Shown: one piece after another, positions 4,576 through 63,030 of the stretch
Layout of the letters: every line of letters starts with the position of its first letter
Numbering within the stretch: the stretch's first letter is position 1
Assembly (NCBI GenBank): GCA_964016885.1
Contig: OZ024741.1
Coordinates: 322,834,001-322,898,000, forward strand
DNA from: Eledone cirrhosa
Taxonomy: Eukaryota
Direction of reading: 5' to 3'
DNA: 64,000 bases
The notes under the pieces: generated by a model
Told to the model about the DNA's origin: nothing
Databases searched by the model: none
What the model saw: only the letters and a program-made list of their open reading frames with translations
Position numbers and translations under genes: made by a program

Positions 4576-4667
<92 letters not shown>

Positions 4668-9345: not shown

Positions 9346-9377
<32 letters not shown>

Positions 9378-9395
9378 TTAATAATAATAATGCCC

Positions 9396-9516
9396 GTTTA
9401 CAATTGTTTCGCTACTCCGTATAATATTTCTGGATCAGATGACTATGTATCATAATTGATCTGGTTCAGTTGAAAATAATTAACATATTTAAAAAAACAG
9501 AGTGGCTCATCGGAAC
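9396..9516 (-). ncRNA. Hammerhead, U4C variant with long stem II (family E)
   Basis: GTT-CCGATGA-GCCACTCTGT..~80 nt..ACGGAGTAGC-GAAA-CAATTG-TA-AAC. Confidence 0.65.
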
Positions 9517-9675
9517 TCAAAGGAATATAAATTAAAATAATGTTACATAATATAATGTTCCATATATTAGTTTTTACTATGGTGCCTTTGTTTCATCAGC
9601 TGTCAGCCATAATCAAGCAGTACTCATCTGTCGAGGCTGCATTATGTAACATTATTTTAATTTATATTCCTTTGA

Positions 9676-9797
9676 GTTCCGATGAGCCACTCTGTTTTTT
9701 TTAAATATGTTAATTATTTTCAACTGAACCAGATCAATTATAATAAATAGTCATCTGATCCAGAAATATTATACGGAGTAGCGAAATAATTGTAAAC
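9676..9797 (+). ncRNA. Hammerhead, U4C variant with long stem II (family E)
   Basis: Inverted partner of 9396-9516 within fold-back 9252-9940. Confidence 0.6.
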
Positions 9798-9812
9798 GTG
9801 CATTATTATTAA

Positions 9813-9847
<35 letters not shown>

Positions 9848-9936
9848 TCTACATTCCTTACATCAAACTAAATATGTTGACAATCTTTTAATAATGTCTT
9901 CCTTGTGAAATTTGTGGTCTTGTTTTGCTTAACTAA

Positions 9937-9998
<62 letters not shown>

Positions 9999-11436: not shown

Positions 11437-11770
11437 TATGAATGTATGTATAGTATATTTGACAATATACCGCTATCGGTTTTAAAGTTGTGACTATGTC
11501 ACTTACTTCTTTTCGGCGAAAGAAGGGAGAGAAGCTAACAGTCTGTTTCACGCTGTTGGCACTCCCCACCGAAAATTATAGACGTTGGATTCTTATAGAA
11601 TTCCAGTAATCGCCAACAGCGTGAAAGAGACTGTTAGCTTCTCTCTCTTTTTTCGCCGAAAAGAAGTAAGTGACATAGTCACTACTTTAAAACCGATAGC
11701 GTATGGTCTTCTAAATGTTTTTAATTAAACATACGGTATATTGCCAAATATACTATACATACATTCATGT
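11437..11770. repeat. Fold-back element between (TA)n tracts
   Basis: 11437-11560 is inverted at ~11612-11770. Only a 3'-half HHR-like GAAA-GAGA ctgttagct TCTC-TC is present. Confidence 0.75.
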
Positions 11771-12518: not shown

Positions 12519-12686
12519 ATATATGAGCTCAGCCGTCGGGGTCCTACTCGTTCCTATTACCCACTCTACTACCCTAAGTATTGAGTACTTTGGTGCGTTA
12601 TGGTCCATCTGGTTCCTTATCACATTTCCTTGGTTATATATATATATATATATAGAAGTGGTCACACAACAGTTAGTTCACCATAC

Positions 12687-12724
12687 CGAGAACAATTGTT
12701 TCACCTTAGTGGATCCTCAGCTCG
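12687..12724 (-). ncRNA. Type I hammerhead (family F)
   Basis: CGAG-CTGAGGA-TCC actaa GGT-GAAA-CAATTG-TT-CTCG. Related copies at 43015-43082. Confidence 0.7.
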
Positions 12725-12779
12725 TAGTCCCATGGACTGAGTGCTCTACCACCACGGATATTACCTTCTAGTGTTCTAC

Positions 12780-12834
<55 letters not shown>

Positions 12835-15664: not shown

Positions 15665-15850
15665 GGGTGGATTGGCAGTATCGGTAGAGGGTCGGACGCC
15701 ATGCTTTCCAGCATAGTTACGTCCCTTTACGATCTGAGTTCAAATCCCGCCGAGGTTGACTTTGCCTTTCATCCTTACGGGGTCGATAAAATAAAGTACC
15801 AGTAATGCACTGGGTAATTGCTGGCCTTGTGCCTAAAGTAGAAACAATTA
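15665..15850 (+). mobile_element. Full-length Meta-type SINE with TSD
   Basis: A-box-like TGGCAGTATCGGTAG, B-box GAGTTCAAATCC; TSD ATTATTACTATATATGT. Confidence 0.9.
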
Positions 15851-16043
15851 TTACTATATATGTATGTGGAGGGAGGGGTATGATGGAGGGGGGGGGGGGG
15901 GGGTATATGTTTTACACATACATATGTAGATTTATACATAGACTAATATAAATACTATAACGGAGCATGTTTGTTGCTATTTGGCATGCTAGAAATAGCA
16001 GCTGAATTCCCGTATACACACGTGTGTGTATGTGTGTGTGCGC

Positions 16044-16664: not shown

Positions 16665-16990
16665 ATGTAGGTTGCCGAGTGTGGTGTCGGGGGTGACCAA
16701 AGTTAATGAAGGTACTCAATACATTGGTAGAATATAGGAATCTTTATCATATATAGAAATGACTTCTACAGGGAAAATAATACCTTATCGTTGTAACAAA
16801 GGAATGACACATTGTGTGATGTACTCCTAAATACACTTTGACAAGATGATCATAGAGAGAGAGAGCTCCCTTGTCTGCAGGCTTGTTTTATCGGGGCTGA
16901 TTCCAGGCTAAACAACAGCTACAAATACGGAGATGAGATAACAACGCACAAGTATTGTTACACACATAAATATATATTCTATTATAATAT

Positions 16991-17353: not shown

Positions 17354-17415
<62 letters not shown>

Positions 17416-17418
<3 letters not shown>

Positions 17419-17910
17419 TAACACGTGTCTATAGAATCACAAGATAAAATATATACTATTTCCTCTCCCAATTAGCATAATTAACCATATAAAAAATCGA
17501 ATAGACCAGGCTACAAGAATGAGGATTCTATGAAGAAATCTCCGACAAATTACCGAAACTAGCGCTTCGCGTCGGCCGTAGCGGAATATTTATCGAATAT
17601 TTCGACAGCGTAATCGCCCAGATATAGTCAACTAAACAGAATTAGGTGTAAAATAAACTAGGAGAAAATAGAATACATTTAAATGTATTCTATTTTCTCC
17701 TAGTTTACGCGATTACGCTGTCGAAATATTCGATAAATATTCCGCTACGGCCGACGCGAAGCGCTAGTTTCGGTTATTTGTCGGAGATTTCTTCATAGAA
17801 GCCTCATTCTTATAGCCTGGTCTATTCGATTTTTTATATGGTTAATTATGCTAATTGGGAGAGGAAATAATATATATCTTGTGATTCTATAGACATGTTT
17901 TATGATATAT
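17416..17910. repeat. Fold-back element with ~200-bp arms in (TA)n
   Basis: 17416-17620 is inverted at 17708-17910, with an inner hairpin at 17655-17707. Confidence 0.85.
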
Positions 17911-18144
17911 AGCTCTGATTGTTTAATTTATTAATTTTTCATTGAGCCACAAAGTGACCAGTTGCAAAACACGTATATGTATATGTATGTATATAAATAT
18001 GTAAACTTTTATATATATATATATATATATATTTAAAAGAAGGAAAAGAATGACTTCACTTGTAGTTCTAAACAATTTTATCTAATTTTATAATATTTTC
18101 CTTTTTTTAAATATACCTAACTGTACCAAGGATTTTACACTTTT

Positions 18145-18699: not shown

Positions 18700-18884
18700 T
18701 GTGAATTGGCAGTATCGGTAGAGGGTCGGACGCCATGCTTTGACGTATAGATTTACGGCCCTTGCCATTCTGAGTTCAAATCCCGCCGAGGTTAACTTTG
18801 CCTTTCATCCTTACGGGGTCGATAAAATAAAGTACCAGTAATCTACTGGGTATTTGCTGGCCTTGTGCCAAAACTAGAAACAAT
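18700..18884 (+). mobile_element. Meta-type SINE with TSD
   Basis: TSD ATTACTCTGAGGGCCT. Confidence 0.9.
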
Positions 18885-19262
18885 TACTCTGAGGGCCTCC
18901 CCTTATTGAGTGCTTTGCTACTCATTCCTAATTGTAGGTCGATTTTGCTTGACCGCAGACAAAGCTTCGATTTTACCACTTGTATATATATATATATATA
19001 AGTGTGTGTGAGTGCGTGTGTGTGTTCATTTTATTAAGGCTAAACAGTTTCGCCTATTTATCATAGGATCAGACTGTGATACAAACAGACAAAACTCCGG
19101 AGTAACAAGATTCACTACATAGCCTTAATAAAATGAACACACACAAACCCTACTTCAGTATTGTACTCTTCTCTCTCAGCAGTCGACCATATACGGATAT
19201 ATATATATATATATATATTAAAATACAAATATTAATAAAATAGACGTTCTCTTTATCAATTA

Positions 19263-19317
19263 CATTTTATTATACATATTTCAGATGTACAACAGTACGT
19301 CCTCATCAGACAAAATA
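19263..19317 (-). ncRNA. Type I hammerhead (family I)
   Basis: TATTTTGT-CTGATGA-GGACGTAC tgtt GTACATCT-GAAA-TATGTA-TA-ATAAAATG. Confidence 0.85.
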
Positions 19318-19700
19318 TAATGATACATGACATACCCTGAGATGTTAAATGGTTAAGATTTAATCAAGGTAGTCAAACTCATTCTTTGATATACTCATTG
19401 AATATTGTTTAACTCTTTAATATATATATATATATATATGAGCATATGATCGTATATATAGTTTAGCGCATACAGATACATATACACATGTACAATTACC
19501 ACATATTCATTGACAGAGATACTTAGAATCATGCATGAAATATGCCTTGCTTTCGCATTTATAGAATGCATAAGCATTCCTACATTCTTAAATACACACA
19601 TGCTTCTTACATGTATAAAGGCATATATTCGTGTATACTGCTGCAAAACAGGTATGTTTATGTACATGCATACATGTATGTGTGCATATATGTTTGAACG

Positions 19701-19856: not shown

Positions 19857-19938
19857 ATTTACGTTAGTGGAGTATATGCATCTTTATGATATATAGAAAT
19901 GACTTCTACAGGACTACAACTGTTTCACTCGTATGAAA

Positions 19939-20088
19939 TAATTGTTTCTACTTTTGGCACAAGACCACCAATTACCCAGTGCATTACTGGTACTTTATTT
20001 TATCGACCCCGTAAGGATGAAAGGCAAAGTCAACCTCGGCGGGATTTGAACTCAGATCGTAAAGGGACGTAACTATGCTGGAAAGCAT
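19939..20088 (-). mobile_element. Meta-type SINE, 5'-truncated
   Basis: Homology to 15665-15850. Confidence 0.85.
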
Positions 20089-22242: not shown

Positions 22243-22428
22243 TAATTGTTTCTACTTTTGGCACAAGACCAGCAATTATCCCAGTGTATTACTGGTACTT
22301 TATTTTATCGACCCCGTAAGGATGAAAGGCAAAGTTAACCTCGGCAGGATTTGAACTCAGTCCGGAAAGGGACGTAACTGTGCTGCAAAGCATGGCGTCC
22401 GATCCTCTACCGATACTGCCAATCCACC
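22243..22428 (-). mobile_element. Full-length Meta-type SINE
   Basis: Homology; TSD TTAATTAAT. Confidence 0.9.
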
Positions 22429-27590: not shown

Positions 27591-27825
27591 TTTAATAATA
27601 ATTGGTTCTACATTTGACACATGGTTAGCTATTTGAAGGGAAGGAAAAGACGAGTAAATCGACCCCAGTGCGTTACTGGTACTTCATTTTATGGACACTA
27701 TATAGACGATAAGCAGAGATAACCTCGGCGGGACTTGAACTCATAACGTATGTAGCAAAGTATGTTCTCTGACGCTCTACCGATATAGCTAATCCATCGG
27801 CCTACTGAAGGTGGTGTTTTAAAAA

Positions 27826-27958
27826 TAATTGTTTCTACTTTAGGCACAAGGCCAGCAATTACCCAGTGCATTACTGGTACTTTATTTTATCGACCCCGTA
27901 AGGATGAAAGGCAAAGTCAACCTCGGCGGGATTTGAACTCAGATCGTAAAGGGACGTA
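27826..27958 (-). mobile_element. Meta-type SINE, 5'-truncated (older copy at ~27600-27800)
   Basis: Homology. Confidence 0.85.
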
Positions 27959-28633: not shown

Positions 28634-31600
28634 TCATTATCTATAAAAGGCAGATTGTTGTTGCGTGTGCATGTTCCATGTTTATACATTTGCACAATTT
28701 CAAACCGATTCGACTTAAAGTCTGTAAGAATGTTGTAAATGGTCAACCTTAGGTCAACGACTATTTATTTCATTCAAACTCACCCACATTTACGGAAATA
28801 ATCGATAAAACTAAATACATGACGCTTATAAACCCACTCCTTAATAATTTCCTTTAGAGAGAGAGAAAAAATAAAGGAGTGAGCTAGAGAGTGAGAGACA
28901 GAGACAAACGTTACCAAACTACAATTATTCAAAAGCAACAGATAAATTTATTCAACAATCTCTTATATACGCTTAAAATCTTTATTTAAAACATCTATCA
29001 TTCAACTCACACACAATTACATTTTGTATATAACATATTTACGCGTTTATTGAGTGAAAAAAAAAACACATAGGGATTTTTAGCCAAACAACTTCAAATT
29101 GCTGACAGAAGCGCGCTTTCAACAAACTGTGAGTTATTTATTTGCCGTTCGTTCTCCCATTTTTCCCCCTGCTGAACGCAGACAGTTTTCAGCCTTATAC
29201 TTTCAAAGGCAATTTTGCTGTAGAAGTAACTTTCATTCTTTCTTTTTCACATAAAATGCCACCTAAAAAGTGAAGTCGCCTCGGTCGCCATACCGCGTCA
29301 GCGGCGGCGCAGAGGGCGATTACAGCAAACGAGTCCCCCGAGGAAACTGCTTTAAGACTTTCACAGAGCGCCTTATGTTCAGCGGAATGCAGAGCTGCTG
29401 AAAGTTTTCAACAACGCACCACACGCCTAGCCAAGATGGCTTCATACGACGCCTCGAGACGTGCTGCGATGTGCGATTCAGAGCGGGCGATACGTCATTC
29501 CACAAACACGCTTCTACTGCTGCTTCCATGTCTTCAGAGGGTCCGGAACAAAGGTTGACTCGCCTGAATAGAAACGCTGCTGCTACTGCTGCTTCCAGGG
29601 CTTCAGAGGGCCCGGAACAAAGGGCGGCTCGACTGACTAGAAACGCTGCGGCTACTGCTGCTTCCAGGGCTTTGGAAGGTTTGCAACGGCGGACGAATCG
29701 CCTTGCTAGGAACGCTGCGGCTATGACTGCTTCCATGGCTTCTGAAGATGCAGACGGGCGCTCCATTAAGATTGCAAGGGTGGCTTCTGCTACTGCTGCG
29801 AGAGCTTCCCACGACCCACAGGAGCAACATTCTACGTTGGAGCGGAACAGTCGACGACAAGAAGCTGCCCGCGGTGTGACGAGCTCCAACAGCCCATACT
29901 GGCACCTACGGGCTTTCAAGTATGAGCCCAACGTTAACTACTCGATGCGTGCCGACATAAATATAGGGGAAAAGCGCTTCAATTGCAAATTCTGCAATGC
30001 TAAAAAGTGGGCTGGGGAGCCACCTGCAATGTGCTGCTTAAACGGTAAGGTCAGCTTGCCCCCTCTTGGGGAACCCTAGAGCCTTTGAAGGAACTACTTA
30101 CTGGTTCTACCTCAAGGTCATCCAAATTCCTTCAACTCATCAGGAAGTACAATTGTGCGTTTCAAATGACTTCTTTCGGGGCTAACGTTGTCAGAGAAAG
30201 TGGTTGGATGCCTACTTTCAAGGTCCAGGGGCAGGTGTACCATCTTATTGGGTCTCTCCAGCCACTACAAAATTGCAAGCCTTCGTTCCTTCAAATTTAC
30301 TTCATGTCTAACTGCAGTAGGCAAGTTGATGCGCTGTTCGGCGTTATTCCAACACCTGCAAACACTGACGCTGACACTTTTGAAAGGGTCATGCTGCTCG
30401 GTCTTCAAAACATGCTTCATGAGCACAACAGTTATATACGCATTGGAAACAAATCCTTCACCAAACTTTACCATTGTCATCGATGCTAACAAAAGACCTT
30501 CTGAGGAGCACGCACGCCGTTATAACGCTCCTTCGTGCAATGAAGTGGCCGTAGTTATCCATGGTGAACAGCACAATAAGCAAGACATAGTTCTTCAAAG
30601 TCGTGACAGTGGTCTTCGACGTATTAATGAGACGCATCGTTCATACGACGCCCTGCAATATCCCCTTCTCTTTGCATACGGAGAAGACGGGTACCATTTC
30701 GGCATTCCTCAGCGCAAACCAAACGAGCCCACTGCTGCGACATCTAAAACTGTTTCATGTATGGCTTTATACTCATACCGCTTCATGACGAGGCCTAACG
30801 ATTTCAGCCCCCTGCACAGGTCACGGGAACTGTTTCACTTTCACCAGTTTGCAGTTGGAGTCGGTGGAGTCGGAGAGACTGTGCTTCATAAAATTGAATC
30901 AGAAGCAGCTGCGCTCAGACTCCTACATCCATTTGCGCGACGGCATCAGGAATGACACTGACCCCCGGAACATCGGCAAAATGTGCATTCTCCCCTCAAG
31001 CTATACGGGGGGGGGGGGGGGGAACATGCACGAGCGAATGCAGGACGCTATGACGTTCGTTCGGCATTATGGGCGCCCCGATTTATTCATCACGTTTACG
31101 TGTAACCCCAAGTGGGTTGAGGTTACGCGGGAACTTATCCCAGGGCAGCAGTACTGCCATCGGCATGATATTATTGCCAGAGTTTTCACGCAGAAGCTGG
31201 CTAAGCTAATTGATCTAATAAAAAAAGGGAAGGTTTTCGGGCCTGTTAGGTGCCACATGTATACTGTTGAGTGGCAGAAGAGAAGGTTGCCACACGCGCA
31301 CATTTTGGTTTGGTTGGTCACCAAAATAGACCCTACAGTTCTAGATGACGTCATCGCAGCGGAAATACCGGACCCGGTTGTTGACCGGCAGCTGTACAAC
31401 ATTGTGAAGGCACACATGGTGCACGGTCCGTGTGGTCCCGGTTTTCAACAGTTCTCTTCATGCCACAAGGATCATGTGTGCACTAAACGATACCCAAAGA
31501 AGTTTGTTGAGGAGACCCAGACCGGTGGCGACGGATACCCACTGTACAGACGAAGGCGGCCTGAGAACGGTGGATTCACTATGGGGTTTCGGGGTCATCA

Positions 31601-34600
31601 AGTTGATAATAGGTGGGTGGTCCCGTACTGTCCATTTCTAATGAAAACTTTCAACGCTCATATAAATGTGGAGTTCTGTCATTCAGTGAAGTCGATAAAG
31701 TACATATGTAAATATGTTAACAAGGGTTCCGACGCTGCCATGTTCGGCCTTCAAAACGACAATAGCAGGGACGAGGTCTCAGAGTACTTGGCAGGTCGAT
31801 ATATCAGCAGTGGTGAAGCTTTTTGGCGGATATTTGGGTTTCCACTTCACCAAAGGCACCCCGCCATCATACAAGTAGTGGTTCATTTGGAAAACGGCCA
31901 GCGGGCTTACTTTACTGAACAGACTGCTGCTCATTTGGCGGCCAATCCAAAGAAACAACTTTGACTGTTTTTTTTACGCTTTGCCAACTTGACACATTTG
32001 CAAAAACACTTTCATATCCTCAGGTCCCGTCCTACTACGTATGGTCAAACAACACTTGGGTGCGTTGGAAGTCAGGTCAGGATGTTGAAGGACATCCTGG
32101 TGTCAAGTTTGACAGTTGTCTAGGAAGAGTGTACACTGTACCTCCCAACCAGCATCAGTGTTTTCACCTGCGCATTCTCCTCCATGAGGTTTTTGGCCCA
32201 CAAAGCTTTCGAGACATAAGAACTGTTGACGGTGAATTATGTGATACTTTCCGGGAAGCCTGCTTTAGGCGTGGCCTTTTGGAGGATGATTCACAATGGG
32301 GCGCCACTATGGCAGAGGGTGTTTTGTTGAAATCTCCTAAAAGACTAAGATCGCTTTTCGCTATTCTACTCCTATGGTGCGACTTGGGTGATCCGGCCTC
32401 TTTATGGCTTAGCTACAAAGATTACATCTCTGAAGATTTCCTGCGTCACGCTCAGTTGCTAAACCCATCGATAGAGGTCGGGTACAGTGACCTCATTTAC
32501 AACAGGGCGCTGCTTGAAAACGAAGATACTGTTCTCGATATGGGCGGTAGTGCGTTGGCGGTGTATGGCCTACCTACAACAAACCGGGAAGGCGCAAACA
32601 CTCTGTCTTCGGATTTGCTGCGTGAGACATCTTATAATGTTGACGAGCTTGCCCAGTACATAGCGGAGAATGAGCCAAAGCTCCTTCCAGAACAGAAATT
32701 CGCTTACAACTCCGTTGTTAATTCTGTCTGGGGCAAAGCTGGCGGGATTTTTTTCCTGGACGCTCCTGGGGGACTGGGAAAACTTTTGTCACCAAATTAA
32801 TATTAGCTGAGATTAGGCGAACAGAAGGCATTGCTTTAGCTGTGGAATCATCTGGAATTGCGGCTACTTTGTTGCCGGGCGGCAGGACAGCTCATTCCTA
32901 TTTCGCTTGACTTAGCGAAGACTGAGACACCCACTTGCAACATCAGTAAGAGCTCCGATCAAAGAGAAGTGTTCAGACGATGCAAGCTTATCGTTTGGGA
33001 CGAATGCACGATGGCCCACAGAGGTGCTCTTGAGGCGCTAGATAGAACTCTGAGAGACATCAAAGACTCTACGGCTCCCATGGGAGGCATAACACTTTTT
33101 CTTTCAGGGGACTTCAGGCAAACGCTTCCCGTTATTCCCAAGGGGACTAGAGCTGATGCAGTACGTGCGTGTCTTAAGTCATCCGCATCGTGGCCCCTGG
33201 TGAAGACTCTGAAACTTCACACTAACATGCGTGCTCATATGCGAGGTGATATCACATCAGCAGCATTTTCTCACACCCTCCTTGCACTTGGCGATGGCAA
33301 AACGCCCGGGGATGAAAAAGGTAATATTGCCATCGACTCACTTTGTACCGTTGTTAGTACGCCTTCTGATCTCAGGGATGCAGTGTTCCCAGATGTCCAA
33401 GCAAATTATCAGAATATGGATTGGCTTGCCCAAAGGGCTATTCTAGCCCCGAGGAATAAAACTGTTAACCATATTAATGATCAAATGCTAAAACTCATTC
33501 CTGGGGATGGCTACGTATATAAGTCTATCGATAGAACTCCTGACCCCGAGGACGTCATCAACTATCCAATAGAGGTACTAAATTCATTTGAGCCCCCCGG
33601 ATTACCCCCACACATTTTGAAACTTAAAGTTGGTGCCCCTATAATGGTCATTCGAAATTTGGTTCCGCCGAAACAATGCAATGGCACACGTTTGGTCGTT
33701 AAGTCCTTAGCTTCCAATCTGATAGAGGCCACGATAATCACAGGGTGCGGTCGGGGCAAGGTTGTGCTCATACCGAGGATGCATCTTTTCCCATCAAGAG
33801 CAGACCTACCTTTCACATTTCGGAGGTCCCAGTTCCCGGTCAGGCCATGCTTCGCAATGTCAATTAACAAAGCGCAGGGACAAACAGTGTCTGTCGCGGG
33901 AATACATTTGGGGGAGCCGTGTTTCTTTCATGGTCAGCTTTACGTTGGCTGCTCGCGTGTCGGCAGCAAGAGTGATGATTTCGCGTTCGTTCCGCAAGGA
34001 AAAATAAAAAATATTGTGTACAAGGAGGTTTTATAGGATTACCTCGATTCCTAATTTTATAACTTTTTAATTTTTTTATTTTTTGCCCTTTCGTGAGTAC
34101 TTTCTAAGTAGGTTAACCTTTACTGCAGTGCACTGGACACTCCCCACCATCTGCCGTACAAAGGCTGATTCTCGCGGCGTTACAAAGCTTCATTGCAACT
34201 CCGACCCTACCCAAATATCAGCTGTTGCTCCTCACCAACCCCCGTTTGGTGGGCCTCGGAGGACCGTGGGCAGGTTAGTATTTCACCTCCGTACGACTCT
34301 CAAAGGGTGAACAATGCTTTAATGACAGGATTTCCATTTGTAGGCGGTTCCCTGCAATTACTTCACACTTTACCAACACCTGGCCTCCGCTCAGCTCTAT
34401 TTCGCTCCCTCTGTCGGCACAGCAGCAGGCTAATCTTCTATGTCCGACGTACATGATGCACCAACCATACAATGACCCCTCTTCCTTTTTGGGGGTTGTC
34501 ATAATTCGACAATATTTTCAGGCCCCTGTTTGCGGTTCCCTCAATCCACCCCCTCCGCCGTTAAAACATGTCATGCAGAACAACTCCATCGCAGTTCTGT

Positions 34601-34856
34601 TGTTCGGCTGGCATCGTCTATGCGCGTGTTGCGCAAGTACTGTGAAACAATAAATTTGAACACTTCTTTGCACAGAGATAATATTAATAGGCGAAACTAC
34701 AATTGTCACTGCTGGTGCAGCTCCTGCTTCGGCAGTACAGGTTTGCAATTCATTCAACCAGTGCCTGGCAGACAAAAAAATGCTGCCATAAAATGGGTGG
34801 TGCAACCTAACTTTGGTAACTTACTGACCCCGAGCAATGCCGGGCTTTAATGCTAG
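28634..34856 (+). mobile_element. Helitron (autonomous-type, decayed)
   Basis: 5' TC start after (TA)n (28634 or 28640). 3' hairpin CCCGAGCAATGCCGGG (34828-34844) followed by CTAG then T. Internal Rep-helicase ORF. Confidence 0.92.
29256..34036 (+). pseudogene. Helitron Rep/helicase (HUH endonuclease plus Pif1-family helicase), frameshifted
   Basis: Zn finger CKFC..CCLNGKV; Rep motifs FITFTCNPKW, VEWQKRRLPHAHIL, KYICKYVNKG; helicase motifs DAPGG.GK, VWDE, GDFRQTLP, AMSINKAQGQT, HGQLYVGCSRV. Several stops and frameshifts. Confidence 0.93.
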
Positions 34857-34880
34857 TATATATATATATATATATATATA

Positions 34881-35488
34881 TAATTCTTTCCATTGGAAAT
34901 TCTCTGTATTTCCAATCTTTTGATTAGTGAAACCGTCGGTAACGGCAATAGAACAGGTAAATATTTAAATCGTTTTTTAATTTAGTTAAAAGATTGTTTG
35001 ATGATTACTTGTTCCGCTCATTTTAATAGTTCTGGTATCTCAAATTAGTACCATCGAACCACGGCTATTATAAACACCATGCATATTTCTGTAGGTACTT
35101 AGTGCCTGTTGGAATATCCATACCCTTTTAAATTTAATTTCCTATATGTAGAGAACAAAACGTTGTATCGCGCTGCTATTTTTAGCGGTATGATCAACAA
35201 GTTTATAATATCCCGCTTTTACTTATGGCCTATTTTTGTGTGTGGGTCACTTTAACGGCTTGACCCCATGCAACGGGTAGGAAGCGATATATTCTGTTAC
35301 TATGAGGCTTTATACCCTTATAGTATGGAAATAGCTGTCTGAAGATCTAATTCTTTCCATTGGAAATTCTCTGAATTTCCAATCTTTTGATTAGTGAAAC
35401 CGTCGGTAACGGCAATAGAACAGGTGAATATTTAAATCGTTTTTTAATTTATTTAAAAGATTGTCTGATGATTACTTGTTCCGGTCAG

Positions 35489-35490
<2 letters not shown>
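34881..35490 (+). mobile_element. Terminally redundant 467-nt HHR unit (family J; retrozyme-like)
   Basis: 34881-35014 is repeated at 35348-35483. No credible ORF. (TA)n on both sides. Confidence 0.8.
35334..35413 (+). ncRNA. Type I hammerhead with extended stem II (family J)
   Basis: GCTGT-CTGAAGA-TCTAAT..ATTGGAAATT ctctg AATTTCCAAT..ATTAGT-GAAA-CCGTCGG-TA-ACGGC. Confidence 0.85.
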
Positions 35491-38632: not shown

Positions 38633-38974
38633 AAGCAAAGAAAATTTCAAAGATACGAAAGATTTCCTGGTGGAAGTTCAGGTGCACTCCGGGTTGGTAT
38701 CCAGTTTCGAGGTGAAAATCCAATCAGAAAATCCAACGAATTTTGAATGTATATATATATTTTTTTTTTTCTTTTTTCTTTTCTTTCTTCTTTTTTCTTT
38801 ATTTATCTCTCCCTTTCTTTTCTCCACATTTCTCTCTATCTCTCCGTCTTTTTACTTATCCTTAACACAACAACTTACTAAAATAAACAAACCACTATCC
38901 TGATGTCGTCCAAAAGTAATGGTCGCATTTTGAAAGGATACGTCAATGTTTATTTATAAAACTGGTATACATTG

Positions 38975-39039
38975 TATTTTGTCTGATGAAGGCATACCAT
39001 AATTTAACTTGGTATCCTTGAAATATGTATAATGAAATA
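38975..39039 (+). ncRNA. Type I hammerhead (family D)
   Basis: TATTTTGT-CTGATGA-AGGCATACCA..TGGTATCCTT-GAAA-TATGTA-TA-ATGAAATA. Confidence 0.88.
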
Positions 39040-39078
39040 AATATGGTTTTATAAATATAGTTTCCATTTGTTAATATC

Positions 39079-39146
<68 letters not shown>

Positions 39147-40797: not shown

Positions 40798-40870
40798 AAC
40801 GCGTGTTGGTGTAATGGCAACACATTGGTCCGATAAACCAAAGATGCGGGTACGTGTCCCATTTGCGTCA
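40798..40870 (+). tRNA. tRNA-like pseudogene or SINE head (anticodon GAT)
   Basis: D arm GTGT aatggca ACAC; anticodon arm TTGGT ccgataa ACCAA; T arm and acceptor stem degenerate. Confidence 0.45.
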
Positions 40871-42840: not shown

Positions 42841-43109
42841 TATATGCACACACACACACACATCTATCTATCTATCTCTCTCTATCTATCTATCTATATA
42901 TATATATATATATATAGTGGTAGAACACTGGAAGGTAATATCCGTAGTGGTAGAGCACTCAGTCCATGGGACGAGTTAGGTAGAAGTGGTTACACAACAG
43001 TTAGTTCACCATACCGAGAACAATTGTTTCACCTTAGCGGATCCTCATCTCAGGATCTGCTAAGGTGAAACAATTGTTCTCAGTATGGTGAACTAACTGT
43101 TGTGTAACC

Positions 43110-43199
<90 letters not shown>

Positions 43200-43839: not shown

Positions 43840-43874
<35 letters not shown>

Positions 43875-43905
43875 AAAGAATAGAGGTGTAACACACAAGT
43901 TATTA

Positions 43906-44281
43906 TATATTGGTAAACGGAATAGAAAATGCTGACAAATTGTTCACAGTTGAAAAATGGTTTAATTAGGAATAAAAGAGTATTAGTGATTGTATGGGTT
44001 AGTATTCAGTTGTGGTTTTAAGTTTTTAAGTTTTTACCGGTTGCGCATTTCTAAATGCTTTTCAAAAATAATTTTGAGATAGAGTGTCCGTGCTGTTAAC
44101 AGCACGGACACTCTATCTCAAAATTAATTTTGAAAAGCATTTAGAAATGCGCAACCGGTAAAAACTTAAAAACTTAAAACCACAACTGAATACTAACCCA
44201 TACAATCACTAATACTCTTTTATTCCTAATTAAACCATTTTTCAACTGTGAACAATTTGTCAGCATTTTCTATTCCGTTTA

Positions 44282-44289
<8 letters not shown>
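43906..44289. repeat. Spacer-less palindrome with ~190-bp arms
   Basis: Centre GTT|AAC at 44097/44098; one mismatch seen between arms. Confidence 0.95.
44128..44162 (+). ncRNA. Hammerhead-like motif, U3-A8 core with GCAA in place of GAAA (family L)
   Basis: TT-TTGAAAA-GCATT taga AATGC-GCAA-CCGG-TA-AA; mirrored at ~44033-44067. Confidence 0.45.
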
Positions 44290-44349
<60 letters not shown>

Positions 44350-44632
44350 GTGGAACCTGGGTCAACGAACGCTCTTGAGTACGATTAAATCGAGTTACGG
44401 CTAAAATTTCATCAAACTTTTGCCTCTGTTCACGAACCCCGCCTTAAATTAAACTGGTGTTCACCACTACTGCAACTCTATCTCCTCCTTCTCTCTCTCC
44501 CTCTCTCTGTCTGTATATATATATATATATATATATAATCTTCTCTACCCCTCTTCGTCTGTCTATCTAGCTCTATTTCTCACTCTCTATCAATCTATCT
44601 ATCTTCTTTCTCTTTATCTCTCAGCTCTTAAT

Positions 44633-44818
44633 AATTGTTTCTACTTTTGGCACAAGGCCACCAATTATCTTTGTGTATTACTGGTACTTCATTTTATCGA
44701 CTCCGTAAGGATGAAAGGCAAAGTTAACCTCAGTGGGATTTGAATTCAGACCGTAAAGGAGCGTAACTCTATGCTGCAAAGTATGGCGGCCAACCTTCTA
44801 TCGACACTGCCAATCCAC
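44633..44818 (-). mobile_element. Meta-type SINE
   Basis: Homology. Confidence 0.85.
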
Positions 44819-45720: not shown

Positions 45721-45825
45721 TCCTCTTCCTGCTATATCAAGCGTTAACCTAATATATACCTTCCATATACTGTACCAATTGTGTTGTTATTTCTGTTTTC
45801 CTTTTACATACATATATATATATAT

Positions 45826-46391
45826 AAGTATGTATGTATGTATACGTACATACATATATGTATACAGACGTACAGTAGTATGTATATATATACATACATG
45901 CACATATATATATATATGCACGTATCGGTTTACCGAACATTTATTATAATGCTCGGTTTGTTTGTAAACAAACAAACAGCCCGAATTACGCCGTACAGTG
46001 TTTAGGCAACCACGTCACCTTTTTGTTCAACACTGACACAGGAACGATGTACTAGTTTCAAGCTTATTAGCTATCGTCAGCATCGTATACCTTCCTGCCA
46101 GATGGTTGAACGTCTGAAAGTATATACTTTCCTTATGCATATTAACGGCTGAGCAGCCTAATTTGCATATCGAGTGAGTTCAGTCGGCCGGGCACACCGA
46201 AAACGATAAATGGAATAGAATGAAACGAAATATCATTTCTCACTCTTAGTACGGCACTTACTTAAATGTAAGTATTATGTATGTATACGTACATACATGT
46301 ATGTATACAGACGTACAGTAGTATGTATATATATATATACATACATGCACACATATATATATGCACGTATCGGTTTACCGAACATTTATTA
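45826..46391 (-). mobile_element. Terminally redundant 443-nt HHR unit (family B)
   Basis: GACGTACAGTAG occurs at 45867 and 46310; homologous to 1021-2030. Confidence 0.8.
46044..46086 (-). ncRNA. Type I hammerhead, canonical (family B)
   Basis: ACGATG-CTGACGA-TAGCT aata AGCTT-GAAA-CTAG-TA-CATCGT; perfect 6-bp stem I. Confidence 0.9.
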
Positions 46392-46551
46392 TAGTACTCT
46401 TTATCTTACTTAGAGTGTACATATTGTATATCAGGCTTTCTGTCGTACGGATTCAACTGAAATGGCCTCGGTTGCTGAAACTTATAGTTTCAGCCAGTTT
46501 CGATTCTGGTTGATTGAAATATGCGCCCCCCCCCCCACACACACACACACT

Positions 46552-50759: not shown

Positions 50760-51245
50760 TTCTTTAAAATGTTAGCCTTAGCATCACTGTTGACTTAAAC
50801 TATAGGGTTAACTTTCTAGATAGTACTTAAGAAATGGACATTGGTTTATACCGACTATATTACAAATCAGGGGAACATCTATGCTATGTACATAATTTAT
50901 CAAATCATCCAAAATCGGTTATTGACACTATTGTCAGTGGCGTATCTTCCAGAATCACTAAGTTGCCGGTAAGTGAGAATATTTTTCACAGCAGCACCTG
51001 GTATTATAATTGTTTCTACTTTTGGCACAAGGCCAGCAATAACCCAGTACATTACTGGTACTTTATTTTATCGACCCCGTAAGGATGAAAGGTAAAGTTA
51101 ACCTCGGCGGGATTTGAACTCAGAATGGAAAGGGCCGTAACTCTATGCGTCAAAGCATGACGTCCGACCCTCTACCGATACTGCCAATCCACCTATAATG
51201 AAGATTTAACCAGATCTGGTTAGAGTGAGGAAATATTTTATCCCT
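50760..51245 (+). pseudogene. Penelope-like element RT C-terminal/thumb remnant, split by a SINE
   Basis: LSITVDLNYRVNFLD..GLYRLYYK..YVHNLSNHPKSVIDTI..SRITKL..IF..YYN[SINE]EDLTRSG matches the PLE pattern VNFLDVT..YVH..SNHP..I..RIS..YN.AL..SGY. Confidence 0.75.
51007..51193 (-). mobile_element. Meta-type SINE with TSD TATAAT
   Basis: Homology; interrupts the PLE RT frame. Confidence 0.9.
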
Positions 51246-51733
51246 CCACCAAAAATTATTATATACCTTATAAGAATAAAAATGTGACTACTGGCAATTC
51301 TGTTAATAAAAATAAAAATAAGAATAAATATAATGAACATAGAAACCAAAAGAATATCTGTAAAAGTCAATCCGTAGTAAAGTAGCTACTTCTGAAAATG
51401 TACCAATTACAAAGAAAAAAATATATTTTATATGCACACACACATATATATGCATGACCATATAAAGGCTTGTGTCTGCGAGTATAATTATACACGTGTG
51501 TGTGGATATATGCATATACGTGTGTATGTATATGGGTATGTAGATACGTGTGTGTGTGTACACATGCCCAAGAGGACAGTTTTTCAAGTGGAACTTCACT
51601 GAATTATCACTGGGGTGAGATACTTTCCAATATCTGGCGAACCAAGCGTCAATAGCAGAAAATTGCTTCGGGAAATTCCGAATACATAAGAAGTTATACG
51701 CCAGTTTGACATGCGTTCTATGTAATACAATAT

Positions 51734-51920
51734 AATTGTTTCTACTTTTTGGCACAAGGCCAGCAATTATCCCAGTGTATTACTGGTACTTTATTTTATC
51801 GACCCCGTAAGGATGAAAGGCAAAGTTAACCTCGGCGGGATTTGAACTCAGTCCGTGAAGGGTAACTGTGCTGCAAAGCATGGCGTCCGACCCTCTACCG
51901 ATTCTGCCAATCCACCGCCC
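51734..51920 (-). mobile_element. Meta-type SINE with TSD
   Basis: TSD CTATGTAATACAATATAAT. Confidence 0.9.
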
Positions 51921-53706: not shown

Positions 53707-54848
53707 ACACACACATATATATGATTATGCCAATGAATGAATCTAAATAAATATTCTCTCCAACTAGTGTATCCTTCCTGCTTGTCTATGAAATAAAAAC
53801 TTAGCAGACGGACAAATAAATATTATTCCTTGAGCTGAATTTCACGATTTCTTTCATACCTAACTGGATGCTGATGGTTTGGAATGAGAAACATCTGAGA
53901 TCAATTTCGTATTGTTGCGATATTGAACTCTTAATTTCCTCCCTGGAACGTATATATATATATATATATAGTATTTTCGTAACAGATTCCTCTAACCATA
54001 TGCGCGTATGCACACGCCCATATATGTATGCTTATATATAAAAATATGAATGAGTCAGGTCCCCGACGGCTGAGTTCTTATCGTTTCAACAGCTAGTTCC
54101 TGACGGATATATATATATATATATATAGATAGATATATATATATAGGTTAGGTTGTTTACCAATGTGTAGGACTAGAGGTTCGGATTGGTAAACGATGAT
54201 GTAATAAATTAATTAAGGCAATAAGCGTTATGCGAATCCTCCATTGTAGATGTGGTATGCCGTGGCTGGTGCAGGAATGGAGTAAAGTATTCACTTAATA
54301 ACAGAAGGCCAGACTGGAAAATGTACTTTAGAGTTTTAATTCTGCGAAAGCACTATACATATTTCGATAACCCATCCCTATCATCCGATGATGCAAGACA
54401 AGGCGATTTCATCAGGTGTTATTTGCTGAATTATATAACAGGATTACGTTGAACCCAAACAGAGAATAGAAGATAGACAAAAGGTAAATAGAAAATAGAG
54501 GACCGATTGGTCAACACACAAAAACAAGATGGTGTAGGGCAGAACAAAGGAGAGACACAAAATAAAAACCCAATCAATTAGGGGGTCACAGAATGTGTGA
54601 CGTAAGAGCTTTGACAATATATAAACAAGCATCCGATTGCCGAACCAACCGACCGGAAACAAGAAATTTATAATGAATTGAAGTGAAACCAACAGGTGCG
54701 TGTGTTCTTATTGGCAGCATGGCCCTCCCAAAATATAACTATATATATATATGTAAAGTTCTATTTAAATTGTTGGGCTACAACAAGCAAATATTTTTAT
54801 AACTGATATAAAGCACTCAACAAATATTTGGAGTAAAAATACGATATT

Positions 54849-55030
54849 AATTGTTTCTACTTTTGGCACAAGGCCATCAATAACCCAGTACATTACTGGT
54901 ACTTTATTTTATCGACCCCGTAAGGATGAAAGGCAAAGTTAACCTCGGCGGGATTTGAACTCAGACCGTAAAGGGACGTAACTATGCTGGAAAGCATGGC
55001 GTCCGACTCTCTACCGATACTCCCAATCCA
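54849..55030 (-). mobile_element. Meta-type SINE inserted in a family D element
   Basis: Homology; family D sequence resumes on both sides. Confidence 0.88.
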
Positions 55031-55059
55031 AATGGAAACTATATTTATAAAACCATATT

Positions 55060-55124
55060 TATTTCACTATACATATTTCAAGGACACCAAGTTAAATTAT
55101 GGTGTGCTTTCATCAGATAAAATA
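55060..55124 (-). ncRNA. Type I hammerhead (family D)
   Basis: Reverse complement of 55264-55328. Confidence 0.85.
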
Positions 55125-55263
55125 TAATATAGAACAGTTTTATAAATAAATATTGACATACAGAATGCAACCATTACTGTTGGAAGCTCCCGGAGCTTCC
55201 AACAGTAATGGTTGCATTCTTTAAGGGTATGTCAATATTTATTTATAAAACTGTTCTATATTA

Positions 55264-55328
55264 TATTTTATCTGATGAAAGCACACCATAATTTAACTTG
55301 GTGTCCTTGAAATATGTATAGTGAAATT
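55264..55328 (+). ncRNA. Type I hammerhead (family D)
   Basis: TATTTTAT-CTGATGA-AAGCACACCA..TGGTGTCCTT-GAAA-TATGTA-TA-GTGAAAT. Confidence 0.85.
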
Positions 55329-55466
55329 AATATGGTTTTATAAATATAGTTTCCATTTATTAATATCGTATATATATATATTATATATATATATATAACA
55401 AATAGTTTTATCGCTCTACATGGCTGAATACAAGAAATGTAAATCTGAGTTTTTTCGAATATTAAT

Positions 55467-55647
55467 AATTGTTTCTACTTTTGGCACAAGGCCAGCAATT
55501 ATCCCAGTTTATTACTGGTGCTTTATTTTATCTACCCCATAAGGATGAAAGGCAAAGTTAACCTCGGCGGGATTTGAACACAGAATGGCAAGGGCCGTAA
55601 CTCTTTGCTGCAAAGCATGGCATCAAACCCTCTACCGATACTGCCAG
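55467..55647 (-). mobile_element. Meta-type SINE inserted in a family P element
   Basis: Homology. Confidence 0.85.
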
Positions 55648-55703
55648 CAAACAGCCTCTTTAACCATGTCAGTAGAATGACCATGTGTTGACATAAAAAC
55701 GGA

Positions 55704-55750
55704 ACGGCTAACACTACTGTTTCTGGGTTATTACCCTTCATCGGTGCCGT
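55704..55750 (-). ncRNA. Type I hammerhead (family P)
   Basis: ACGGCA-CCGATGA-AGGG taataa CCCA-GAAA-CAGTAGTG-TT-AGCCGT. Confidence 0.65.
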
Positions 55751-55796
55751 ATACTGTTTACCTGCCAACTGTCAGAACTAGTGAAAATATATTATA

Positions 55797-56307
55797 CTAG
55801 CAGTGGTACCCGACGTTGCACGGGATAATGTGTTGTGAAATATATAACCGTCTTAGCTAAGCTTAGTATTGCCACAATCACAGCTGGCAAAGAAGTAAGG
55901 GTCTGGTGGTATGTAAGTAAGCAACACTGTGGCTTAAAACGGGAGGAAGAAGTTGTGTGCACTTACCAACTGTTTGTGGAATAAGTGTGAGATTTGTCTT
56001 GAGCAAGGGTGGCAGAATAACCGGATGCAGCAGACAGCCAGACATACTGACAGATATTATAAGGACGCGACGTTATATGTATGTATCTATCTAAAAAGAG
56101 AAAGACTAAGAATTATAGAGCGAGATCGCTAAATCACCTAATGCGGTCCCTAGGGCATTGAAAATTTGAAATTCCTTTTGCTCAGAACACTCCCTGAAAC
56201 ATAAGTATTACATGTGTAAAGTTTTAAAACAGTCGGTTTGGTGGTTCTCTAGTTTTAGGGATTCAAACTCACAAACAGACGGACATCCTCAGTCTTATAT
56301 ATAGAGA
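55797..56307 (-). mobile_element. Non-autonomous Helitron
   Basis: 5' TCTCTATATATAAG; 3' hairpin CCCGTGCAACGTCGGG then CTAG. Absent from the paralogous site near 62190. Confidence 0.85.
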
Positions 56308-56590
56308 TTTTCTGGAATATACAGTGACTGATCAGCCTGATTTGCATATTACCAGACCTATTGATCAGCCAGACTTGCATATCAGGCCAGTCAGTTTTCT
56401 GTATACGAGCGACTAATGACCGGCTTTGCCATAGTCAAATAACTATATGTATACATACATATGTGTATATGTGTATACAGACATACATATATGTGTGTGA
56501 ATATATATATATATATATAACGTCAACCTAATACGTCATCATTGCAAGTGTTTTGTTCTTCTGTGTTATTTTTCTTGATTGACTCATTTA

Positions 56591-58497: not shown

Positions 58498-59375
58498 CTA
58501 ATTGTTTAACCCGGTTTTACCCGGGAGATTTGGTTCACTGATAAGAATTCAACTTCTTTTCTCCACCAAGAAACCAACAAAAATCACAAAAAGGGAACAC
58601 GACAAACAAAAGACATTAAGAATAACAAACCGAAATCCTAATAAATTTACTGTCAAATAAGGTTGAAAACAGAAATATGAAACCCCCCCCCCCCCCCAAA
58701 AAAAAAAAGAAAAAAATTGAAATCCAAAAAGACAAAACACAAACAAAGACAAACATAAAAAACAACAAAATTAATAATCACAAACTTATGTGCATTTATT
58801 TGCCTTGCAATTAAAATGGGACTGGCACAGAAGCTGGCACATGAAGTCGAACCGTGCATGGCACGGAAAAGAGGCTGGCAATGAAGAGCGTTATCATTGT
58901 AGAGCCTCTTGGTAGACAACATTCTTAACTTCTCTTTTTGTTGAGTAAATGAAGAGTCCCCGCGGACTTCCTACTCGGAAACATCCAACGTACAGTTGGC
59001 CATGTGAGAATACCTGTTCACTCAGATTCAGTCCAACCACTTGCATCGATTGTCCCTGTGCCTTGTTGATGGTCATGACAAAGCTGAGTTTGAGGAGATA
59101 TTGGAACCGCGTAAATTCGTTGACGACGTCAGATGGACTGAGTTGTACTGGAGGAATTAGAACGTCTGTGCCAGCAGCTGGTCCGTTCAAGATTGACGCA
59201 ACCAGAATTTTGGACTTTAACGATTTGATGATAATTCGTGTTCTGTTGCACATTGTTGGAGCGTCCAAGTTCCTTAGCATCATAACCGGCGAACCAACTT
59301 TTAGCTGCAGGTCGTGAGGCGGAAGTCCAGGAGGTGTTTGACTGTTGAGGAATTCAATGGTAAACATTGTGGCAT
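58498..59375 (-). mobile_element. Helitron 3' remnant with Pif1 helicase C-terminus (58894-59367)
   Basis: EFLNS..PPGLPPHDLQLKVGSPVMMLRNL, MTINKAQGQS, FSHGQLYVG; terminal hairpin CCCGGGTAAAACCGGG then TTAG (decayed CTAG). Confidence 0.85.
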
Positions 59376-59944
59376 CCTCAGCATTTTTGAATGTGTTGTT
59401 TATGCAGTAGAAGTCTGCTTAGAACGCGCAAAACATCAAATCTCGTAATCGAGCGTTCACGATACTGACGTGACGTTGAAAGTCGGCCTTCCCTTTGGCT
59501 AGCCGTTTCATGGGAAATTCCTATTTCATCGATTTTCTCCGTAACCATGGAAGCTTGTAGCTTGAAAGTCGACCCAACGCCTCCTCGGGCATTCTGCATA
59601 ACTGTGTAAATTTTTGCTGCATTCCACCAAGCCGTTTCGACGTTTATCCGACTACACCTACACATACAACGCCCGACCACTTCAAATTTATATAGTAGAT
59701 GTATAAATATGTGTGTAGATATGTAATAGCGATATGTCTAACTATAAGAGCATACTTACACGTGTAAATGTAATAATATATGTGTGTGTACATAAATGTG
59801 TATGCACATAAATATACATAAGAGATCGTGCTGGTAATCGGGTGTAAACGCAATCATATATATGTGTGTACGTACATGTCTGTATGTGTGTCTGTATTAT
59901 GTGTGAGTGAAAATGTGTGTGTGTGTATGTGCAGCTATGTATGT

Positions 59945-60925: not shown

Positions 60926-61900
60926 ACAACAACAACAACTACAACTGCAACGGCGATAACAGCAGTAGCAACAACAACAAAAGAAATAAGGACAACAATA
61001 TCATCATCATTAACTATAACAACACCAGCATCAACATGACCAAAAATAGCTACAACTGAAACAGCAACAACGCCGTCAAAATTAACAGCAAGAACTGCAT
61101 TATCATCATCAACAACTATGTTTAAAGCATAAAGTCGTGGTGGGAATTCCGTGTTTAAACTTGAGGCAATTAATGGCAGAACTTAAAATGTGAACGTAAG
61201 GATGGCTTGCTGAGTGGTTAAGAGGTTCGCTTCGCAAATATTCATTGTCGAAACTGACAGAGGTCCAAGACATGTTTCTTACAATCAGAGGATTGGATTC
61301 AAGTTTCTAATTAATATAGCTATTTGATTAGAGTCCACTTACCTCCGTTTGTTTGGAATATTATCAATTTGCCAAAATGGAATATGTCATTTCATCCTTC
61401 ATTTTGAGAAAACTTCACACAAATGTGTGCAATGACATTTTTGCTGGATCAAAGAATGCCTTGACATTTTGTCTTTAAAAATTAAACTGTTGTTTGAATT
61501 TTTCACCACAACATTCTTCATTTTTTAAATTGATAACACTCTGTCTTTGTTCACATGTACATCCACACACATACATGCATACGTACATATATGAATCTGT
61601 AAGAGGGATAGTGGAAATATGCAAACTGTTCTAAAGTTCAACCTATGGCACTCACCATTTCAACAATTGATAATTTTTCTTTGTTAGAAATCAGCTTCTA
61701 GTTTTCCGGAGAAATTCAATAAAGGAAAAAGAAATAAAATTACATGTACGTGTATATATAAATATGAGTCCCAGATTCAGCCGGAGTGATCAGACTAAGT
61801 AAGGTACTCAATACATTAAGTGTATACATCAAATTTAATATAGAAATAGCTTCTACAGGGCTAGAAATGTTTTATTCGAAGGAAATCAGCAGGAAAGCCA

Positions 61901-61935
61901 CTGATGATTTACTTCGAATGAAACAGTTCTAATCC
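61901..61935 (+). ncRNA. Decayed hammerhead core in a small fold-back
   Basis: CTGATGA-TTT acttcg AAT-GAAA-CAGTT; a relative near 19915 reads GAAA-CAGTTG-TA. Stem I not formed. Confidence 0.4.
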
Positions 61936-61969
61936 TGTAGAAGCCGTTTCTATAAATTTGTTATATATT

Positions 61970-62444
61970 CAGATTTACATTTCTTTTATTCAGCCATGTA
62001 GAGCGATACAACTATTTGTTAGTCATTTGACTATACCAAAGCCGGCCATTAATCTCTCGTGTACTTACTGACCTATCCGCTGATATGCAAATCTGGCTAA
62101 TCAGTGGGTCTGCTAATATGCAGATCTGACTAATCAAACAGTCTACTAATATGCAAATCAGGCCGATCAGTCACTGTATATTCCAGAAAATATATTTTTT
62201 CACTAGCTCTGACAGTTGGCAGGTAAACAATATAGAGTATTGATGAAGGGTAATACCCAGAAACATTAGTGTCTGTCGTTCTGTTTCTATGCCAACCCAA
62301 CAGCTAGAATGGTGGGATCATTCTACTCACATTACTTAAGAGGCTGTTTGCATAATTGCTAACGAAACGAATATTATTATTAATATTCGAACAAGTCAGA
62401 TTTACATTTCTTGTATTCAGCCATGTAGAGCGATAAAACTATTT

Positions 62445-62445
<1 letters not shown>
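61970..62445 (+). mobile_element. Terminally redundant 427-nt HHR unit (family P)
   Basis: 61970-62018 is repeated at 62397-62445; homologous to 55398-56445. Confidence 0.8.
62234..62279 (+). ncRNA. Type I hammerhead (family P), partly decayed
   Basis: AGAGTA-TTGATGA-AGGG taata CCCA-GAAA-CATTAGTG-TC-TGTCGT. Confidence 0.6.
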
Positions 62446-62515
<70 letters not shown>

Positions 62516-62863
62516 AGTTTCCCTTTCGAGGGTGGGGGATCCCTAGTCTGGGATACGACGTGCAGCGACTCGTTTTCTGCCTCTAACCGGACTCGGTTGC
62601 CCACAATGCAGAAGAGAGTAGAATAATAAGATAATCAATACTGAGATCTGACCAACCGCTTCTCTTTATACCGAACTTCAACGAAACGGCTGTCATCCTT
62701 AATATTATGTATATATATATGTATATATATATATATATGTATGTATAGAATAAGGAAAAGCGAAGTAGTTTCAGTTGTTCAAGTCCTTTAATAATAATGC
62801 TGTGATATATATTTCAATGGCGACACTGTCGCCATTGAAATATATATCACAGCATTATTATTA

Positions 62864-63030
62864 TAGAGGGTCGGACGCCATGCTTTCCAGCGTAGTTACG
62901 TCCCTTTACGATCTAAGTTCAAATCCCGCCGAGGTTGACTTTGCCTTTCATCCTTACGGGGTCGATAAAATAAAGTACCAGTAATGCACTGGGTAATTGC
63001 TGGCCTTGTGCCTAAAGTAGAAACAATTAT
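62864..63030 (+). mobile_element. Meta-type SINE inside fold-back 62748-63120
   Basis: Homology; tail duplicated at ~63044-63075. Confidence 0.88.

Follow-up and report, generated by a model that had tools for sequence, protein, structure and literature searches.

The window analysed here, by which we mean the whole 64-kb stretch of DNA, is repeat- and microsatellite-rich DNA of animal type. At positions 61969-62445 (plus strand) it contains copy 1 of a repeat that we call family P. This copy consists of one full non-coding unit of 427 nt (62019-62445, 37% GC), preceded by a repeat of its 3'-terminal 50 nt (61969-62018), that is, an overrun or partial tandem, which is identical to 62396-62445 at 48 of 50 positions. 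The preliminary description had given a terminal repeat of 49 nt at a distance of 427 nt; the period was correct, and the length is amended to 50 nt (48/50 identical). Altogether, copy 1 measures 1.12 units and carries a single hammerhead. On the left it is flanked by a short (TA)3 run, and its 3' end directly abuts a (GT)33.5 microsatellite (62446-62512), the presumed insertion target. A 145-nt palindrome of another repeat family (61823-61967; relatives at 19889-19942 and 16749-16772) lies directly upstream, and family P is inserted into the short TA tail of this palindrome. The CTGATGA..GAAA at ~61902, considered as a second hammerhead, failed the descriptors and belongs to this palindrome.

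Several elements can be distinguished within the unit. A 5-bp hairpin (62020-62033), seen in predicted folds and pairable in copy 2 too with one G-U, would adjoin the presumed reverse-transcription start on its 3' side if the RNA were tandem or circular, and may have a role there. Three 33-nt subrepeats follow (62076-62174), of which copy 2 has two, with the exact octamer ATGCAAAT at 62085 and 62151; internal subrepeats had thus been noted correctly, as had the lack of an ORF, since the longest stop-to-stop frame wholly within copy 1 spans 57 codons. The core of the unit (62146-62392) is collinear with another repeat of the window, family B, in the order octamer box, hammerhead and downstream hairpin (138/208 and 157/225 aligned columns identical). 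The 3'-terminal 50 nt (62396-62445) form the fixed 3' end of the family and have the same sequence in both copies. Folding of the circular 427-nt monomer, which had been proposed as a check, left 62% of it paired and gave a structure more stable than shuffled sequences (z -3.7 for the sense strand, 40 shuffles, versus -1.7 for the antisense strand), to which the 33-nt subrepeats may contribute. The corresponding values for families B and C were -6.2 and -6.5. As background, 22 windows were retained after filtering for complexity; one of them contained family B itself, and the other 21 had z values of -2.9 to +2.3 (12 shuffles each).

BLAST of the element against the 64-kb window found only one further copy and no shorter fragment. 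Copy 2 (55396-56445, minus strand) comprises one unit plus 2 nt, with its 3' end in (TA)n, and is interrupted by two nested insertions on the same strand. One, of 511 nt (55797-56307), begins with TC, ends with a hairpin and CTAG, and lies between A and T; we take it to be Helitron-like from such hallmarks and not from a library comparison. The other, of 176 nt (55471-55646), replaces 23 nt of the unit and is presumably a SINE-like repeat. The unit is therefore ~384 nt long (1050 - 511 - 176 + 23 - 2), with two subrepeats in place of three and another 15 nt missing. The low-complexity 5' flank of copy 2 (56446-56500) is similar to the 3' end of family B, which is rich in TA/CA; this may be a coincidence.

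The two P copies were identical at 294 of 329 positions over eight ungapped blocks. Copy 2 begins at the unit junction of copy 1 and has a self-overlap of 2 nt, a TA that may be derived from the target, and its 3' end lies at most 3 nt from the position of the 3' end of copy 1. The upstream repeat is absent from it, so that the refuting possibility raised in the preliminary description, namely that the terminal repeat is a one-off duplication missing elsewhere, is borne out in part. Over the 3' 50 nt the copies agreed at 50 of 50 positions, versus 244 of 279 for the rest (35 differences; Fisher p 0.005, or 0.012 without CpG sites), which hints, from n=2 copies only, at a constrained cis-element.

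Copy 1 contains a degenerate type I hammerhead (62234-62279, plus strand) with a predicted cut after 62273. Stem I (62234-62239/62274-62279) retains 4 of 6 pairs, the core (62240-62246) reads TTGATGA, so that C3 is U, stem II (62248-62251/62255-62258) has A.A at 10.1/11.1, and the GAAA lies at 62260-62263. The hammerhead of copy 2 (55704-55750, minus strand) has CCGATGA (U4 is C) and a GUU site, and keeps five of the six pairs of stem I. The central hammerhead described earlier is upheld as a motif by its covariation with family B, and its supposedly intact core is not, both P copies being mutated; the CACTAGTG given for it occurs in neither copy, which have CATTAGTG and CAGTAGTG instead, and the central C is found in family B only. 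In predicted folds, copy 2 formed a three-way junction (stem I pair probabilities of 0.89-0.98 for five pairs), and copy 1 misfolded, with a pair probability of 0 for stems I and III. Rfam models at the gathering score gave no hammerhead in the 64-kb window and one tRNA-like match, and at E<=10 no hammerhead over either P copy. Bacterial and archaeal genomes, scanned with an exact pattern, contained no match.

A relaxed hammerhead descriptor, written with the family P motif already seen, gave a match in 18 of 3000 dinucleotide-shuffled versions of the element. Across the whole window the strict descriptor matched 4 times (shuffle mean 0.07) and the relaxed one 9 times (shuffle mean 0.9; 30 shuffles in each case), and one or two of these nine are probably chance matches. 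When the five natural P and B hammerheads were aligned, 93.4% of 61 cells were paired, compared with 28-42% in slid-register controls, and 4 of 13 pairs had changed on both sides. The structure was drawn from the same five sequences, which form only two lineages, and a pair-count shuffle for the covariation was not significant (53/500). The compensatory changes in stems I and II relative to family B thus lend support to the putative family P hammerhead and do not amount to proof. At 10.1/11.1, families B and C have U.U and both P copies have A.A. U-U at this position is described as a working hammerhead variant (PMC3088659), and A.A is expected to be poorer; since both copies carry A.A, family P may never have cleaved well. 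Copy 1 has a single hammerhead, whose core is mutated and whose stem I is broken, so that it cannot release a monomer, and the locus is almost certainly inert.

Family B has a period of 444 nt and is represented by a minus-strand copy of ~1.3 units (45819-46399, intact hammerhead core at 46080) and by a head-to-head inverted pair (1021-2031, intact cores at 1362 on the minus and 1706 on the plus strand), each arm of which exceeds one unit by 15-16 nt. On the unit, the 3' ends of the pair are 63 nt apart. All three copies can be drawn as the same closed 444-nt circle in differing registers, that is, with circular permutation. Local alignment of P with B scored 89, against a shuffle maximum of 43 (0/200 reached the observed score), and was collinear from the octamer box to ~62390, with a core identity of 66-70%. 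Family C (34878-35490, plus strand) has a period of 467 nt, measures 1.31 units and has an intact core at 35339; the stem II region of its hammerhead (35339-35408) is unusually long (~50 nt). Neither family C nor family A, a set of shorter repeats, showed similarity to P above shuffles.

These relationships alter the reading of unit size. The three families had been called unrelated, yet P and B are homologous and collinear, and only C stands apart. A shared size constraint at 427-467 nt had been proposed; the other P copy is ~384 nt, so that unit lengths of ~384, 427, 444 and 467 nt come from two independent lineages that span ~384-467 nt. Nor does 427 nt exceed the usual range, as had been suspected. 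Published sizes are 150-450 bp for animal retrozymes and 350-390 bp in mussel (PMC7229834), 51-972 bp for retrozyme family consensuses (bioRxiv 10.64898/2026.07.22.740005) and 415-428 bp for the hammerhead-bearing W25.2 of schistosomes, where three of five candidates from W25.2 and W36.2 are reported to cleave in vitro (PMC8490949). The size is ordinary, and a non-coding unit of 427 nt with 37% GC lies within the 150-450 bp and <50% GC used to recognise retrozymes. A two-hammerhead tandem of P, B or C was not found in the 64-kb window.

The octamer box is the longest exact run common to P and B. Six of the seven occurrences of the exact octamer in the window fall in P or B copies, which are homologs, so that the counts are not independent; the last one stands 88-89 nt before the core. 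The octamer-bearing subrepeats are a candidate internal promoter element of family P. The promoter of newt satellite 2 probably uses the same octamer. In the literature on that promoter we found no direct confirmation of octamer use; newt satellite 2 itself is cited with an snRNA-type promoter (PMC2220036, PMC6765202).

Other repeats crowd the window. Family A comprises short 3' remnants (4380-4580, 38909-39085, 55029-55372 and 19189-19326) that carry a hammerhead and end in (TA)n, and includes one inverted pair whose two 3' ends are ~15 nt apart; this pair lies tail to tail with P copy 2, with a common (TA)n run. Hammerhead-like motifs of other families at 12655-12785, 42914-43114, 28231 (minus) and 19309 (minus) are typical of the terminal repeats of Penelope-like elements (PLEs), and one of them is a palindrome across stem II. 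Long head-to-head palindromes at 9247-9946, 43841-44349, 17410-17911, 11471-11701 and 62786-62866 are possibly PLE-type inversions; the first of these, when read through, contained no clear hammerhead. A SINE-like repeat of ~175 nt occurs in many copies (291-463, 15679-15851, 18713-18886, 19938-20088, 22243-22415, 27821-27958, 44631-44804, 51006-51180, 51729-51902, 54848-55019, 55465-55640 and 62864-63030), several of which directly adjoin hammerhead repeats or palindromes. We take it to resemble octopus SINEs, and the literature gave no direct confirmation of its SINE family. The weak tRNA-like Rfam match (35 bits, 40800-40870) lies inside a repeat and is possibly a SINE head. A degraded autonomous Helitron (29400-34860, Helitron_like_N and PIF1 domains) ends immediately ahead of family C; another helicase fragment lies at 58897-59418. 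A non-LTR retrotransposon at 6368-8464 is frameshifted and has RT and zinc-binding domains; the best relatives of the LINE-type RT are 53-59% identical among the matches listed (120 of 732).

The terminal redundancy in the six copies of P, B and C is 50, 2, ~138, 15, 15-16 and 146 nt. A length that varies from 2 to 146 nt does not fit a fixed, LTR-like part and is as expected of overrun by a reverse transcriptase. All six copies measure 1.00-1.31 units and none is shorter; three were needed to define the families, and the other three (1.00, 1.03 and 1.03 units) represent two independent events, as two of them arose together. No junction was seen in family A (4 copies) or family D (3 pieces), and the unit-length pattern is therefore not general for the window. 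Both P copies have a fixed 3' end and a variable 5' end (n=2), and both 3' ends lie in microsatellites, (GT)n or (TA)n. When the 3' ends of hammerhead repeats in the window were placed by hand, 11 of the 12 continued into (TA)n or (GT)n; the edges of such runs make up 4% of the window. The end of the P insert lies 172 nt beyond the predicted cleavage site. Neither a poly(A) tail nor a target duplication was found at either P copy. An inverted copy and two 3' ends are present in family B and in neither P copy. A Pfam scan of window frames of at least 75 aa, from which low-complexity frames had been removed by an entropy filter, found GIY-YIG in none of 79 frames, and only one LINE-type RT and the Helitron domains were present. 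We rejected an LTR reading of the 50-nt repeat, as it is absent in copy 2, and also a TA-duplicating DNA transposon, since no terminal inverted repeats were seen when the ends were read.

Partial tandems, adjacent inversions, an optional tail and a bias towards microsatellites are described as PLE traits (PMC8557442), and a PLE origin has been put forward for animal retrozymes (bioRxiv 10.64898/2026.07.22.740005). The PLE protein of the anole is reported to nick AT-rich DNA and extend both strands, with two internal start sites on the RNA, and uncleaved RNA was its main substrate in vitro (PMC11167929). More-than-unit cDNA made from circles has also been proposed (PMC4209133, PMC7761336). Since the insert of copy 1 contains an uncut hammerhead and extends beyond its own start, the template must have held the junction; a circle and an uncleaved multimer are about equally likely as that template.

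Metazoan non-LTR retrozymes of coral, mussel and axolotl are described as having features that recur in family P, namely non-coding units of 150-450 bp with <50% GC, a single type I hammerhead in each unit, a self-paired circular fold and no LTR (PMC7229834), and solo monomers such as copy 1 are a described retrozyme class (bioRxiv 10.64898/2026.07.22.740005). Unlike them, copy 1 lacks an array, has a mutated core and carries A.A at 10.1/11.1, and family P has a conserved octamer box whereas retrozymes seem, from the account in PMC7761336, to be promoterless. With PLEs and their pLTRs (PMC8557442, PMC4209133, PMC11167929) the family shares the partial tandem, a fixed internal 3' start, microsatellite targets and a type I hammerhead with a near-palindromic stem III, to which the relative B adds inversion and two 3' ends. 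It differs in that family P has no RT/GIY-YIG ORF and a period of 427 nt versus ~3 kb, and the ends of family B are 63 nt apart versus a reported tail of 30-40 bp.

The W25.2, W26.2, W27.2 and SMalpha elements of Schistosoma mansoni, likened here by description and not by sequence, have hammerhead units of 333-428 bp and many dispersed full-length or partial copies (PMC8490949), but SMalpha-type elements are reported as Pol III transcripts (PMC2220036, PMC6765202). Newt satellite 2, compared by features and not by homology, is likewise a hammerhead repeat, of ~330 bp, and is cited as having an internal snRNA-type Pol II promoter (PMC2220036); the newt repeat is vertebrate and forms tandem arrays. 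Plant LTR retrozymes are likewise non-autonomous, hammerhead-bearing and terminally repeated, but are described as having type III hammerheads within ~350-bp LTRs, PBS and PPT, and 4-bp target duplications (bioRxiv 10.64898/2026.07.22.740005, PMC6765202). In family P a single type I motif lies outside the 50-nt repeat, the repeat itself is missing from copy 2, and the family did not pass as a plant-type element. Among cephalopods, 235 Rfam hammerheads are counted in the giant squid genome (PMC6962438); beyond this count, we found no description of a cephalopod retrozyme in the literature searched.

Taken together, we consider it likely that copy 1 is a dead-on-arrival insertion, 1.12 units long, of a non-autonomous, PLE-mobilised non-LTR retrozyme, which sustains the retrozyme-like hammerhead unit of the preliminary description. 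A second P copy with a common 3' end but a different 5' end favours this reading, as do the intact cores of family B, homologous to P, the hammerhead covariation, the stable circular fold and the 3' ends in microsatellites, and the circular permutation, head-to-head inversion and two 3' ends of family B are PLE hallmarks that favour mobilisation by such an element. Counting against it are the lack of a two-hammerhead tandem of P, B or C and of a PLE ORF in the window and of an Rfam call, the A.A at 10.1/11.1 and the small number of P copies (two), and the main use of uncleaved RNA by the anole PLE counts against the need for a circle. An active retrozyme is recognised by two or more tandem units with complete hammerheads, and copy 1, with 1.12 units and one mutated hammerhead, is accordingly filed as a solo, dead copy.

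Copy 1 could instead be a remnant of an autonomous PLE, in which a 427-nt 5'-truncated 3' end (pLTR) lies after a second copy truncated to 50 nt, with no dedicated mini-replicon. Partial tandems of 5'-truncated copies are described as a standard PLE product (PMC8557442), hammerheads sit in pLTRs (PMC4209133), and families A and D look like such short 3' remnants. Random truncation, however, would not have put the 5' end of copy 2 at the junction of copy 1, family B closes into a 444-nt circle in three copies of different registers, and an ORF remnant is absent from the P unit; we judge this origin unlikely. An origin at the DNA level, either as a satellite fragment produced through recombination or circular DNA or as a one-off 50-nt duplication, with the hammerhead a passenger, would agree with the absence of the 50-nt repeat from copy 2 and with the true hammerhead satellites reported in other animals (bioRxiv 10.64898/2026.07.22.740005, PMC8490949). 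Excision of DNA would not be expected to give a 3' end common within 3 nt, a fixed 3' and variable 5' polarity, microsatellite-flush ends or inverted head-to-head relatives, which makes this origin highly unlikely.

We see very little chance that a SINE-like element carrying a hammerhead by accident was moved by an ordinary LINE. A LINE-type RT is encoded at 6368-7417 and schistosome hammerhead repeats have been called SINE-like (PMC6765202), but poly(A) tail and target duplication are missing from both P copies, and the sources describe internal initiation, overrun and inversion for PLEs and not for LINEs (PMC11167929, PMC8557442). That the hammerhead itself is a chance motif in an unrelated repeat might be argued from the mutated cores, the lack of an Rfam match and the misfolding of copy 1. 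The position-for-position alignment with three intact family B cores, the compensatory changes in stems I and II, the rate of 18/3000 in shuffles and the 4 strict matches against a mean of 0.07 leave that notion already close to refuted, and its probability is negligible.

For a PLE-mobilised retrozyme, the following cycle can be proposed. Master loci elsewhere, with two or more tandem units, would be transcribed, perhaps from an internal octamer-containing promoter, and the type I hammerhead, judged by its covariation, would cut the multimer into monomers that could be circularised. A PLE reverse transcriptase/GIY-YIG protein would nick an alternating purine-pyrimidine microsatellite; the pattern of targets is observed, and we infer the mechanism. 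Synthesis of cDNA would begin 172 nt 3' of the cleavage site, at an internal position that does not vary, and would traverse the intact hammerhead and overrun its own start by 50 nt in copy 1 and ~2 nt in copy 2. The 50-nt repeat would then be a by-product and not a functional terminal repeat.

A bolder and doubtful extension is that insertion lengths record the retrozyme cycle itself. On a circular RNA, the PLE reverse transcriptase would have one or two fixed starting points and would usually halt on coming round to its own start. Families P and B would represent a single old lineage that has an octamer-driven promoter of its own inside the unit and in which the non-paired 10.1/11.1 variant changed from U.U to A.A. 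A unit-length peak could also be explained by a protein roadblock on a linear multimer. If this extension were true, a genome-wide histogram of insertion lengths would directly test the long-proposed circular-template model.

Family P adds one family to a known and widespread class and removes a proposed anomaly of size. Candidate cis-elements in it are the conserved 3' 50 nt, for the partner protein, and the octamer box, for transcription. The copying of animal retrozymes into DNA is still a model, and dispersed copies that have a fixed 3' end and a measurable overrun offer a cheap way of telling circular from linear templates from the genome alone.
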